From: Phycisphaerae bacterium | GTDB taxonomy: Bacteria > Planctomycetota > Phycisphaerae > SM23-33 | DNA: 64,000 bases | Reading direction: 5' to 3' | NCBI GenBank assembly: GCA_046541415.1 | Contig: JBKHDI010000001.1 | Location: 32,657-96,656, forward strand | Part shown: positions 14,506 through 57,859 of the stretch, piece by piece | Position numbering within the stretch: position 1 is the stretch's first letter | Layout: each line of letters begins with the position of its first letter | Program-made: the position numbers and the translations under genes | Notes under the pieces: model-generated | Databases searched by the model: none | What the model saw: the letters and a program-made list of their open reading frames with translations, nothing else | What the model was told of the DNA's origin: nothing

Positions 14506-15552
14506 TCAGCCCATGGCAAAACCGGGCAGAATCTGGCCTTGGGCCAAGAAGATCACCAGCGTCACCGTCACCGGGGAAAGCAGCGTCGAGTAGAGCACGG
14601 CGCGGGCGGCGTAGTCGGGGTGGTTATCGAACTCCATGTTCAGCAGCATGCAGTTGACGGCCGTGGGAGAACTGGTGGAGATCAGCAGCATCTGGGCCTT
14701 GAAGCCCTCCAGGCCGAAGAGGTAGACCAGGCCGACGCCGATCGCCGGACCGGCCAGCAGACGCAGGGCGACCGACCAGCGGACGGGGTATTTCGGCCCA
14801 CCGGGGCGGACCAGGGCCAGCTGGGCCCCGAGCGTCAGCAGGGCGACGGGGACAAACGCGTTCTTGACGTAGACCAGGAACGCCCAGAAGGGGCTGAGGG
14901 CATCGGCGGCGGGCCCGGCAGTCTCTCCCAACAGTCCCCGGACGTAGTTGGTGGTAAGTCCGGCAGCCAGCGCGTAGATCGGCGGGAACTTCAGGATGGC
15001 CATCAGGTTCTTGCGCCAACAGGCGCCCTTGCCCCCCGCGGCAATCAGCACGCCGACAGTGAAGGTGAAGAAGTTCTGCGTGATCATCACGTAGGCTTGC
15101 ATGGTCGCAGCCTGGGCGGAGAGGTCCTGGCCGTCGATGGTTTGTCCTTCGAAGGCAAACTTCTGCAGCGGCAGGCCGAAATTGCCAGAGTTGTGCAGGA
15201 TCGTCGTCAGGACCATCACGCTGATCTGGTCTCTCGGCACGCCGCGCAGCAGTGCGACCAGGACCGTCAGCACGGCCATGGCCGCCAGCAGCGACACGGC
15301 GAAGCCAACAACCTGCAGGGCCTGCAGCGGGGATACCGTCGAGGTGACGATCGAGTAGTAGATAATGCCCGGCATGACGAAGTAGAAGTTCAACCGCTTG
15401 AGCGTGAGCATCTCCAGGCCGAGCCTACGCTGCATGAAGAAGCCCGTGGCCGCCAGCAGCAGAACAGGCAGGACGATGTCATAGAAGATGTAAGCCAGCT
15501 GTGCGGGCAACTGGGGCAGTTGCTCGATCAGGTTGGCCAGGCAGTTGTCCAT
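14506..15552 (-). CDS. AEC family transporter (auxin efflux carrier/malate permease-like)
   Basis: 10 predicted TM helices, two-repeat AEC topology, 348 aa. Confidence 0.75.
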   Translation of the reverse strand: MDNCLANLIEQLPQLPAQLAYIFYDIVLPVLLLAATGFFMQRRLGLEMLTLKRLNFYFVMPGIIYYSIVTSTVSPLQALQVVGFAVSLLAAMAVLTVLVALLRGVPRDQISVMVLTTILHNSGNFGLPLQKFAFEGQTIDGQDLSAQAATMQAYVMITQNFFTFTVGVLIAAGGKGACWRKNLMAILKFPPIYALAAGLTTNYVRGLLGETAGPAADALSPFWAFLVYVKNAFVPVALLTLGAQLALVRPGGPKYPVRWSVALRLLAGPAIGVGLVYLFGLEGFKAQMLLISTSSPTAVNCMLLNMEFDNHPDYAARAVLYSTLLSPVTVTLVIFLAQGQILPGFAMG

Positions 15553-15620
15553 GGGGGGCCCTTACAAGGGGGTCTCAGGGCCCGAGATGATACGGCGATT
15601 CGCCCGGCCGGTCCAGAAAT

Positions 15621-15660
15621 GAAAAAACGCGGGGCCCATGGCTTTTGGCCGGACCCCGCG
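15621..15660 (-). terminator. intrinsic-terminator-like hairpin on minus strand (CGCGGGG..CCCCGCG + TTTTTTC) 70 nt upstream of AEC start
   Basis: Minus strand reads CGCGGGGTCCGGCCAAAAGCCATGGGCCCCGCG followed by TTTTTTC. No gene ends here. Confidence 0.4.
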
Positions 15661-15845
15661 CTTCTTGGGAAAGGAAAGTTGGGCTTTCCGTTACAGGGAA
15701 CCTACGATCCGGCCACGCCGGGGGCCAACTCCCGGGGGCAGAAATCTGCCAGATCTGCAGTCGGCCATGCGTCAGGGGACAAAATGACAGCGGCGATGCC
15801 AGGGATTCGTGTTACAAGTCATGATTGTAAAAACTTTTGCGAGTC

Positions 15846-15861
15846 TGGCATGGGCTTTGCA
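15846..15861 (+). promoter_or_regulatory. sigma54-type -24/-12 element TGGCATGGGCTTTGCA upstream of tandem hsp20 genes
   Basis: Matches TGGCACG-N4-TTGCW at 15 of 16 constrained positions with correct GG/GC spacing. 124 nt upstream of hsp20 start. Confidence 0.45.
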
Positions 15862-15984
15862 TTTTCATTCTGGTGCAGACGTGGGCCCGCTGGGAGGGCT
15901 CCTTACGATCGAGAAACCTTCGGCCGTAGCGGACCTGCTTCGGGACCCTCCGGCCGCCATGAAAAGCAAGGAAGGAGAAACGAC

Positions 15985-16431
15985 ATGACGCGTTTGAAAT
16001 GGTCAGGTTGGGATCCCTTCGGGGGTCTGAAACTCATGCAGCGTGAGATGCAACGCCTCGTCGACCGGACGTTCACGGGGGAATCCCGTTACGTCGGCGG
16101 CGGGATGTATCCGCCGGTCAACGTATACGAGGGGCAGGACGACACGCTCGTGCAGATCGAACTGCCCGGCGTGGCCGAGGACGAGATCGACCTGTCGATC
16201 ACCGGCGAGACGCTGACGATCAAGGGCAAGAAGAACTTCGTCGGCGACGAGGACCAAGATCGCCGCTACCAGCGTCGCGAACGCTGGGCCGGCGAGTTCT
16301 CCCGGACCATCGTTCTGCCCGAAAAGGTCGAGGCCGACGAAGTCGAGGCCAAACTCACCGACGGTGTGCTGACGGTCCGCCTGCCGCGGGCCGAGGCGGC
16401 CAAACCCAAGAAAATCGCGGTCCAACTGTAA
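15985..16431 (+). CDS. Hsp20/alpha-crystallin family small heat-shock protein
   Basis: ACD motifs (PPVNVYEGQDDTLVQIELPGV..., GVLTVRLPRAEAAKPKKIAV). GGAGGAGAAACGAC ATG RBS. Track ORF 14539..16431 is a GC-driven 5' extension. Confidence 0.88.
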   Translation: MTRLKWSGWDPFGGLKLMQREMQRLVDRTFTGESRYVGGGMYPPVNVYEGQDDTLVQIELPGVAEDEIDLSITGETLTIKGKKNFVGDEDQDRRYQRRERWAGEFSRTIVLPEKVEADEVEAKLTDGVLTVRLPRAEAAKPKKIAVQL

Positions 16432-16444
16432 CAGGAGGCCGATC

Positions 16445-16864
16445 ATGACCGAAATGCAGACACAAAAGAACAACGACGACGTCCTCTCGGTAAACGCATC
16501 CCGGACCAAGGATGACTACGACACGGAAAACACCGTAAGCCCCCTCGTAGACATCTACGAGACCGAGGACGGCACGACGATTCTGACTGCCGAAATGCCC
16601 GGCGCAAGTTCCGATTCGCTGGACGTGCAGGTAGAGAAGGGCGTATTGACGATTACCGCACAGGCCCAGCCCCTCCAGCCCGAGGGTGACTACCGCCTGA
16701 CCTACGGCGGGTTCGGCACGGGACGCTACCACCGCGCGTTCGCCCTGAGCGACGAAATCGACCGGGACAACATCGACGCTCAATTCGAAAAGGGCGTTCT
16801 GACGCTGAAACTGCCCCGGGCCGAGCAGGCCAAGACCCGGAAGATCGCGATCAAGACGTCCTGA
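16445..16864 (+). CDS. Hsp20/alpha-crystallin family small heat-shock protein (second paralog)
   Basis: ACD motifs (VDIYETEDGTTILTAEMPG, GVLTLKLPRAEQAKTRKIAI). AGGAGG RBS. 13 nt after first hsp20. Confidence 0.88.
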   Translation: MTEMQTQKNNDDVLSVNASRTKDDYDTENTVSPLVDIYETEDGTTILTAEMPGASSDSLDVQVEKGVLTITAQAQPLQPEGDYRLTYGGFGTGRYHRAFALSDEIDRDNIDAQFEKGVLTLKLPRAEQAKTRKIAIKTS

Positions 16865-16894
16865 AACAACATCTGTTGATCCGAACCACAAGCA

Positions 16895-16934
16895 CTGGCC
16901 GGAGCGGATCGCCGCCCCGGCCAGTTCGCGTTTT
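16895..16934 (+). terminator. intrinsic terminator after hsp20 pair (CTGGCCGG-N14-CCGGCCAG + TTCGCGTTTT)
   Basis: 8-bp GC stem and downstream T-tract read directly. Confidence 0.45.
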
Positions 16935-17060
16935 GCCCAGGCGATGGCAAAGTTGACTTCCACTTGCCCGGGACATATCATTCATCAGTCGTCTATGTGA
17001 CCAGCAAAACAAGTATTTATCGTACGATACAAACGATTTCGTGCAGAAGGGATCAGGCAG

Positions 17061-29783: not shown

Positions 29784-29856
29784 TGGAGCCGAGGGGATTC
29801 GAACCCCTGACCTACGCATTGCGAACGCGTCGCTCTCCCAGCTGAGCTACGGCCCC
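29784..29856 (-). tRNA. tRNA-Ala (anticodon CGC)
   Basis: Minus-strand sequence GGGGCCGTAGCTCAGCTGGGAGAGCGACGCGTTCGCAATGCGTAGGTCAGGGGTTCGAATCCCCTCGGCTCCA folds as cloverleaf. G3:U70 alanine identity pair, anticodon loop TTCGCAA, T-loop GGTTCGAATCC. CCA not encoded. Confidence 0.9.
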
Positions 29857-45338: not shown

Positions 45339-45567
45339 GTAGAAGGGGTCCTCTGCTGATTGCGCCTGTCAAGTCTGCGAGAATGGCGACGATCGCTGAG
45401 CCTAGCTGAATGGAGGGCCGTGTGCAAGGCTCCTGCCGCATCAGGCGAAATCGGGAAAGACTGAACGCATCCGGTCCGCCGGCCGATATGGAAGGGGAAT
45501 CTGCTCGGGCAGCACGGACAGGGAGGGGGTGGCGCCCCTGAGAGAACCTCAAACAAGGATACTGGAA

Positions 45568-57175: not shown

Positions 57176-57859
57176 GTGACCTCGAACCCTTCGAATCCAT
57201 TCGGGCTGACGGACCCTATCGGCCCGCATTTGGCACCCGACGGATACGACGACCCCTTGGTCAGCCAGATCGAGTGGACCCCGGTGGCATGCGATTCCGT
57301 TGAAACGATGGGCAGCCGAGATCTCCGACGACTTGCCCCGAATGCCTGGCAACTGCGTGCCTCGCGGCATGTCCGGTTTTTGATGATGGCTGTCCTGATG
57401 GTCGCATTGGCGTGCCTTCTCTGGGCGGGCTGGATTATACTTGGTCTCTTTGCCGGCCAGAACCAGAACGTGGCACTGGCAGGGGCCTTGCTGGTCATCT
57501 GCATGATACTTTCACGACCATGTGAACTGATCGATACGTTGTCGGGCCTCGCGCCGATCCGGATTGACCTGAATCTGGGGTGGCTCTGGCAGGGGCGAAG
57601 ACCAGCCGAGGGCGACCAGACCGATCTCAAGGCCCGCCGCGTTCGCATCGAGTCCATCCATGCCCTGCAGCTTTTGTTCAAATCGATTCACACCCCCGGG
57701 GCTGACTATCCCGCCCAAAGCTACGAGTTGAATCTGATCACCCACGGCGGGCAGCGGATGAACCTGCTGGACAATCGGCTGCGGCACGAGGCCCTTGGCC
57801 ATGCAAAGAATCTGGCCGAGATTCTCGACGTTCCGCTCTGGAAACAGATGGGCCGCTGA
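57176..57859 (+). CDS. hypothetical membrane protein (two TM helices mid-protein)
   Basis: 20 nt after preceding small gene. Hydrophobic segments FLMMAVLMVALACLLWAGWIILGLF and ALAGALLVICMIL. Confidence 0.45.
   Translation: MTSNPSNPFGLTDPIGPHLAPDGYDDPLVSQIEWTPVACDSVETMGSRDLRRLAPNAWQLRASRHVRFLMMAVLMVALACLLWAGWIILGLFAGQNQNVALAGALLVICMILSRPCELIDTLSGLAPIRIDLNLGWLWQGRRPAEGDQTDLKARRVRIESIHALQLLFKSIHTPGADYPAQSYELNLITHGGQRMNLLDNRLRHEALGHAKNLAEILDVPLWKQMGR

Follow-up and report, generated by a model that had tools for sequence, protein, structure and literature searches.

The tandem small heat-shock genes hsp20A and hsp20B of this Phycisphaerae bacterium most probably form a bicistronic sigma-54 operon, controlled by an NtrC-family activator at two upstream dyads; we assign this reading a probability of roughly 0.8. 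It is carried by a forward-oriented -24/-12 element that recurs before hsp20A in every syntenic locus compared, and by dyads that keep their position relative to this element in Phycisphaerae and take a palindromic form across Planctomycetota. Throughout, the window denotes the whole stretch of DNA analysed (64,000 nucleotides), and positions are counted from its first letter.

Organization of the hsp20 locus

The hsp20 genes are divergent from an AEC-family transporter gene, from which hsp20A is separated by an intergenic gap of 432 nt (Table 1). Both products match Pfam HSP20, which confirms the tandem pair of Hsp20 genes proposed in the first-pass annotation. A Shine-Dalgarno sequence, AAGGAAGGAG, precedes hsp20A at 15968-15977, and hsp20B is probably co-transcribed with hsp20A. 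The G+C-rich hairpin that follows hsp20B probably marks the end of the operon, where it would act as a plus-strand terminator. Beyond this hairpin lie a thioredoxin gene (trx), yjeF_N and a class II aldolase gene. Because trx has a sigma-70-like promoter of its own, conserved in the related locus L173, where it can be read from the sequence as TTGACT-17-TATGAT, it probably lies outside the sigma-54 transcript. A search of the whole window against Rfam at gathering thresholds returned only a tRNA at 29784-29856, and at permissive E-values the region 15400-16100 yielded only sub-threshold noise.

Table 1 Features of the hsp20 locus in the window and sigma-54 elements of the orthologous loci
Feature	Positions	Strand	Details
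AEC-family transporter gene (Mem_trans)	14506-15552	-	divergent from hsp20A
Intrinsic terminator, 10-pair G+C-rich stem	15660-15628	-	U6 at 15627-15622
Invariant single-stranded block UUUCCCAAG	15672-15664	-	between hairpin and terminator
Invariant hairpin GGAAAG-CCCAA-CUUUCC	15689-15673	-	same RNA; block almost invariant
Candidate sigma-70-like promoter, TTGGCC-N18-TAGGTT	15728-15699	-	upstream of hairpin
Candidate UAS site A, CTGCCAGATCTGCAG	15746-15760		starts 100 nt before the T of TGGCA
Candidate UAS site B, GGGACAAAATGACAG	15776-15790		start at -70 from the -24 element; A-B spacing 30 nt
A+T-richer spacer between UAS and promoter	15796-15845		GC 0.40 vs 0.64 for the window
Sigma-54 -24/-12 element, TGGCATGGGCTTTGCA	15846-15861	+	GG 15847-15848, GC 15859-15860
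Predicted 5' UTR, ~112 nt	15873-15984	+	start placed ~12 nt past the GC by standard sigma-54 geometry
hsp20A, 148 aa	15985-16431	+	ATG at 15985; Pfam HSP20 E = 8e-23
hsp20B, 139 aa	16445-16864	+	13 nt 3' of hsp20A; Pfam HSP20 E = 1.5e-16
G+C-rich hairpin, 14-pair stem	16894-16925		3' of hsp20B
Sigma-70-like promoter of thioredoxin gene, TTGACT-17-TATCAT	16953-16981	+	10/12 matches
Sigma-54 element of L164			TGGCACAGTCTTTGCA
Sigma-54 element of L166			TGGCATAGCCTTTGCT
Sigma-54 element of L167			TGGCACCCAGTTTGCT
Sigma-54 element of L168			TGGCACCGCGCGTGCA
Sigma-54 element of L169			TGGCACCGGCCTTGCT
Sigma-54 element of L170			TGGTATCGCCTTTGCA
Sigma-54 element of L171			TGGCATCGGTTTTGCT
Sigma-54 element of L172			TGGTATCCCGTTTGCA

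A conserved sigma-54 element upstream of hsp20A

The promoter element agrees with the consensus TGGCACG-N4-TTGCW at 11 of the 12 specified positions and has exact GG-N10-GC spacing; its single mismatch is a C-to-T change at consensus position 6, where the same T occurs in 8 of 30 related sites. It lies 124 nt upstream of the hsp20A ATG, on the same strand. The first-pass annotation had described the element in these terms and had further noted the absence of CIRCE, and both statements held: the CIRCE sequence TTAGCACTC-N9-GAGTGCTAA has no match anywhere in the window at up to 3 mismatches. A simple scan of the plus strand upstream of hsp20A, in a group whose sigma-70-family consensus is poorly known, found no sigma-70-like site. 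Apart from the sigma-54 element, no promoter is recognisable for the tandem hsp20 operon as a whole.

Judged by window statistics alone, the element is not significant. A scan of the window allowing at most one mismatch gave 2 matches against 0.76 expected, a count equalled in 18 of 100 shuffles. That it exceeds chance is indicated by its conservation in other genomes. Two further candidates in the window were dropped, namely the second match with at most one mismatch, at 57477, which sits within an open reading frame (57176-57859), and a two-mismatch site on the minus strand at 45423-45438, before an aldo-keto reductase gene, which was without support.

Eight syntenic Phycisphaerae orthologue loci (L164 and L166-L172) were fetched via exact-protein look-up. 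Their hsp20A orthologues share 53-74% identity with that of the window, the tandem hsp20A-hsp20B order is kept in all eight, and trx-yjeF_N continues after the pair in five. A forward GG-N10-GC element precedes hsp20A by 47-115 nt in each of the eight (Table 1). With the window included, the element is thus present in the forward orientation in 9/9 loci and in the reverse orientation in 0/9, the background rate at ≤3 mismatches being 0.0325 per 150 nt per strand. Since the intergenic regions are mostly unalignable apart from a few blocks, this conservation is selective.

The comparison was extended to 80 hsp20 loci from reference genomes, whose proteins are only 32-51% identical; scans of reference genomes and metagenomes returned no close relative, the best matches reaching 44-57% identity. 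A forward element (≤2 mismatches, within 450 nt upstream) was found in 18 of the 80 loci, where about 2 would be expected. Of the 12 loci that carry a Planctomycetota, Phycisphaerae, Pirellulales, Planctomycetales, Gemmatales or Sedimentisphaerales label, 11 are among these 18, and so are loci of Hydrogenedentota, Kiritimatiellia and Verrucomicrobiota. In a matrix of 30 sites, the GG and GC dinucleotides are invariant and position 13 is T in 30/30. Taken over the syntenic Phycisphaerae (9/9) and the other Planctomycetota loci (11/12), the comparison strongly supports the sigma-54-type reading that had been offered for the window.

Upstream dyads as candidate activator sites

Two dyads upstream of the promoter, here termed sites A and B (Table 1), are likely the activator sites, to judge from their conservation, and would replace in this role the G+C-rich repeat at 15628-15660. 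For site A, the half-site CTG[CT]CA begins between -100 and -104 in 8 of the 9 Phycisphaerae loci and at -82 in the remaining one, L168; for site B, 7 of the 9 have a GACAAAnTGGCA-type sequence that begins between -69 and -73. The chance expectation for these half-sites is 0.015 per 30-nt search interval. In the window, L164 and L166, A and B are spaced 30-31 nt apart. Relative to the predicted transcription start near 15873, the two sites would be centred at about -120 and -90, approximately three helical turns apart.

More distant Planctomycetota carry a palindrome of the form CTGNCA-N3-TGNCAG, most commonly CTGCCATTTTGGCAG, at 80-136 nt before the -24 element, and the perfect site in these genomes is CTGCCA-N3-TGGCAG. 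The perfect palindrome CTGNCANNNTGNCAG occurs 11 times in ~990 kb of loci. In a de-duplicated set without L086 and L098, 9 perfect palindromes lie upstream of sigma-54 elements, all of them at -80 to -136 from the sigma-54 element of an hsp20 gene. When both strands of ~1.1 Mb were scanned for a composite of the palindrome (≤1 mismatch) and a sigma-54 element (≤2 mismatches), 16 were found, each preceding an hsp20 gene, in loci that had been selected for carrying hsp20. Each of the window's two dyads departs from the Planctomycetota palindrome at 2 positions and would not stand out on its own. The Phycisphaerae dyads are in general more degenerate than those of distant Planctomycetota, yet they are fixed in position.

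Between the dyads and the promoter lies the A+T-richer spacer. The corresponding segment has a GC content below that of its locus in 9/9 loci, by 0.02-0.24, the difference being only 0.02-0.03 in L166 and L170. This offers a slight hint that the spacer may serve as a bendable or looping segment; a canonical IHF site was not found within 15796-15845. At 15812-15830 the spacer also holds TTACAA-N7-TTGTAA, an A+T-rich and perfect inverted repeat located 16 nt before the -24 element; it overlaps a minus-strand sigma-70-like match, ATGCCA-16-TACAAT (15851-15824). Conservation of this repeat does not extend to L164 or L166.

Proposed mechanism of hsp20 activation

In the proposed mechanism, sigma-54 holoenzyme would bind the element at 15846-15861 as a closed complex, and an NtrC-family enhancer-binding protein, presumably encoded elsewhere in the genome, would occupy the dyads at 15746-15760 and 15776-15790. 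The activator would then loop across the A+T-richer spacer, contact the polymerase and open the promoter with ATP, giving a bicistronic hsp20AB transcript that would stop at the hairpin at 16894-16925. Heat or proteotoxic stress would presumably act as the inducing signal.

The long predicted 5' UTR raises a further explanation, which is compatible with the proposed mechanism: an RNA thermometer within its ~112 nt could provide the main temperature control, with the promoter contributing only basal or general-stress expression. In the minimum-free-energy fold the Shine-Dalgarno region is partly paired, and a weak, sub-threshold likeness to the cis-regulatory freshwater-2 RNA was noted (22.1 bits against a gathering threshold of 49.9; E = 0.54). 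The fold itself is ordinary, however, with z = -1.04 and 30 of 200 shuffles equally stable, and because it is not unusual the thermometer lacks support. Neither sequence nor length of the UTR is conserved among the orthologues, in which the spacing varies from 47 to 124 nt. Combined with the absence of any Rfam match at threshold, these results led us to reject a ROSE- or fourU-type thermometer as a candidate, and we regard thermometer control of this operon as unlikely.

A different possibility is that the TGGCA repeats, including the apparent -24 box, are operators of a dimeric repressor or activator working with a non-sigma-54 polymerase, the sigma-54 likeness being secondary. The upstream dyads CTGCCA-N3-TGGCAG do share the TGGCA core with the -24 box. 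The promoter-proximal element, however, is not dyad-symmetric, and its GG and GC, exactly 10 nt apart and accompanied by a T-rich -12 flank (TTGCW) in 30/30 sites, constitute a sigma-54 signature. Moreover, the offset between promoter and dyads is fixed at 70-100 nt, as is typical of an enhancer-promoter pair. An operator array of this kind is therefore improbable.

Still less probable is that the element is a chance match and that hsp20AB is driven by an unrecognised promoter of the sigma-70 family, whether housekeeping, sigma-32-like or ECF. Such a reading could appeal to the non-significant window scan and to the poorly known planctomycete sigma-70-family consensus, owing to which a simple scan could miss a promoter. 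It is opposed by the exactly spaced, forward-only element in all nine syntenic loci, whose flanks are mostly unalignable, by the recurrence of the element in 11 of the 12 other Planctomycetota loci, and by the lack of a plus-strand sigma-70-like site in the scan upstream of hsp20A.

A minus-strand RNA element of the AEC transporter gene

The first-pass annotation had reported an imperfect inverted repeat, CGCGGGG-N19-CCCCGCG, at 15628-15660 and had taken it for the upstream activating sequence of the hsp20 promoter. The repeat is present as described, its arms occupying 15628-15634 and 15654-15660 with 19 nt between them, and its distance of ~200 bp from the -24 element would suit an enhancer, but that role is the least probable of the alternatives considered, since on the minus strand the repeat forms a stem followed by T6 (U6 in the RNA) with four compensatory pairs across five sequences, persists alongside an adjacent invariant hairpin before the AEC gene of L173 and L174, two loci without hsp20, and is missing from L167-L172, which retain the sigma-54 promoter.

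The four stem pairs with compensatory changes, alongside which the U-run is kept, indicate that the repeat is conserved at the RNA level. L173 and L174 are loci of AEC-transporter orthologues that were fetched independently. In both, trx-yjeF_N-aldolase directly adjoins the AEC transporter gene in divergent orientation, and hsp20AB and its promoter are absent; the segments 2185-2500 of L173 and 2037-2500 of L174, compared with 15553-17060 of the window, retain the hairpin, the single-stranded block and the terminator before the AEC gene. In L167-L172, which have other upstream neighbours, the minus-strand element is missing. The element therefore belongs to the AEC gene, being kept without hsp20 and lost with other neighbours. 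The direct divergence of the AEC gene from trx in L173 and L174 further implies that the UAS, promoter and hsp20AB act as a single insertion/deletion unit, which sits between the AEC transporter leader and the conserved trx promoter.

The short conserved minus-strand RNA element spans 15616-15735 and also occurs in L164, L166, L173 and L174. In L164 and L166 the terminator is accompanied by the hairpin, the UUUCCCAAG block and, just upstream of these, a candidate sigma-70-like -35/-10 pair. It would correspond to a terminated RNA of ~70 nt, either an sRNA or a transcription-attenuating leader of the AEC gene. It has no Rfam match and may represent a new RNA motif of Phycisphaerae. A leader peptide within this RNA was rejected, the ATG of L173 and L174 being ACG in the window, L164 and L166.

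Sigma-54, its activators and previous evidence

Scans for GAFTGA and RpoN-box motifs, together with tblastn using an enhancer-binding protein, detected neither rpoN nor an enhancer-binding-protein gene in the 64-kb window, and motif scans and tblastn likewise found neither gene in the compared Planctomycetota loci. The S1 table of a recent survey (PMC12316311) lists one rpoN gene in each of its seven Phycisphaerae. This survey, published in PLoS One in 2025 and based on position-specific scoring matrices (PSSM), predicted sigma-54 promoters to be enriched before chaperone genes in Planctomycetota; the genes it lists are GroEL, IbpA (COG0071), GroES, GrpE, DnaJ and DnaK, with the pattern seen in Planctomycetia and less so in Phycisphaerae (PMC12316311). 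In Rhodopirellula baltica, which possesses rpoN, heat induces a tandem pair of neighbouring hsp20 genes, RB10279 and RB10283. The rpoN transcript level of this organism is unchanged on heat shock, which leaves room for control at the level of the activator without giving it positive support. Citing Studholme and Dixon (2004), the R. baltica study mentions a sigma-54 promoter that has been proposed for a thioredoxin gene. Our literature search retrieved no experiments on an activator of heat-shock genes in planctomycetes or on the site it binds.

Outside the compared Planctomycetota, two loci of Sumerlaeota, L065 (5755-7842) and L068 (5255-7477), have rpoN no more than a few kb from hsp20. The rpoN gene is also near hsp20 in L114 (1-1392), a Hydrogenedentota-like locus that additionally has a -24/-12 element before hsp20.

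Implications for heat-shock control in Planctomycetota

To our knowledge, no heat-shock regulator has been experimentally defined in Planctomycetota, and a conserved promoter-enhancer module before hsp20 gives a concrete handle on heat-shock control in this phylum. As a speculative extension, to which we give well under even odds, the small-heat-shock response of Planctomycetota, possibly of the PVC group and Hydrogenedentota too, and perhaps even the whole chaperone regulon, could be governed by sigma-54 and one dedicated NtrC-type activator recognising CTGCCA-N3-TGGCAG. If so, this dedicated activator would replace the sigma-32 or HrcA/CIRCE systems of other bacteria and would itself have to sense proteotoxic stress. 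A sigma-54 promoter gives no transcription unless its activator is present, and the module before hsp20 would accordingly act as a tight off/on stress switch.

The dyad CTGCCA-N3-TGGCAG could be used as bait for the activator, through DNA-affinity capture, DAP-seq or co-occurrence of motif and regulator, and could help to delimit the regulon by genome scanning. As an inducible promoter, the hsp20 module could also find use in the genetics of planctomycetes. Since the general principle had already been predicted computationally in 2025, the gain made here lies in the anatomy of the enhancer and in the corrected assignment of the UAS; what the present analysis adds is a pair of tandem dyads that are conserved and stand at a fixed offset. 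Should the dyad lead to a dedicated activator that controls the chaperone regulon in heat shock throughout the phylum, the importance of the finding would be greater.

Comparison with known systems

The closest precedent is the PSSM survey, which concerns the same phylum and the same gene class (IbpA/Hsp20, COG0071), so that the window represents an instance of its pattern (PMC12316311). That survey was done entirely by computation and reports enrichment by COG, and its passages on these genes name no activator or upstream site for them.

In E. coli, the small heat-shock gene ibpB has a sigma-54 promoter for which there is experimental support; a report citing Kuczynska-Wisnik et al. (2001) used it as positive control when assaying sigma-54 by ChIP. 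Control by sigma-32 takes precedence over this E. coli promoter, which is located within the ibpAB operon and has a weaker -24 box, TGGTAA. Unlike it, the window's sigma-54 element serves the whole operon and is accompanied by conserved upstream dyads.

The hsp20-hsp20(-clpB) loci of Desulfuromonadales resemble the planctomycete arrangement in having a -24/-12-like element and repeated upstream dyads before tandem hsp20 genes, but their dyad is TGCGACGTCGCA and their -12 box reads TTGA, as against TTGC in planctomycetes. Two to three copies of TGCGACGTCGCA precede hsp20 in L036 (2266-4903), L124, L119, L051, L128, L144, L078, L033, L052 and L067, and clpB follows the tandem genes in L036. The two groups also differ in that a Desulfuromonadales activator gene (Sigma54_activat + HTH_8) lies directly upstream, whereas none adjoins the planctomycete operons. 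An enhancer-binding-protein gene was observed upstream of hsp20 in L036, L124, L119, L051, L128, L144 and L078, at ~230 nt in L036; the encoded activators combine Sigma54_activat, AAA_lid_14 and HTH_8 domains with an N-terminal region of ~150 aa that has no domain assignment. Neighbouring Geobacter-type loci have a sigma-32-like promoter in place of the -24/-12 element.

The consensus site of NtrC is TGCACCA-N3-TGGTGCA. The window's two dyads, each built as half-site-N3-half-site and placed three helical turns apart, presumably match the layout of NtrC sites at glnAp2. The likeness extends to the CCA-N3-TGG core of the dyads and to their location ~90-120 nt upstream of a -24/-12 promoter. The two systems differ in sequence and in physiological setting: the half-site is CTGCCA here and TGCACC for NtrC, and the target is a chaperone operon in the former and nitrogen assimilation in the latter.
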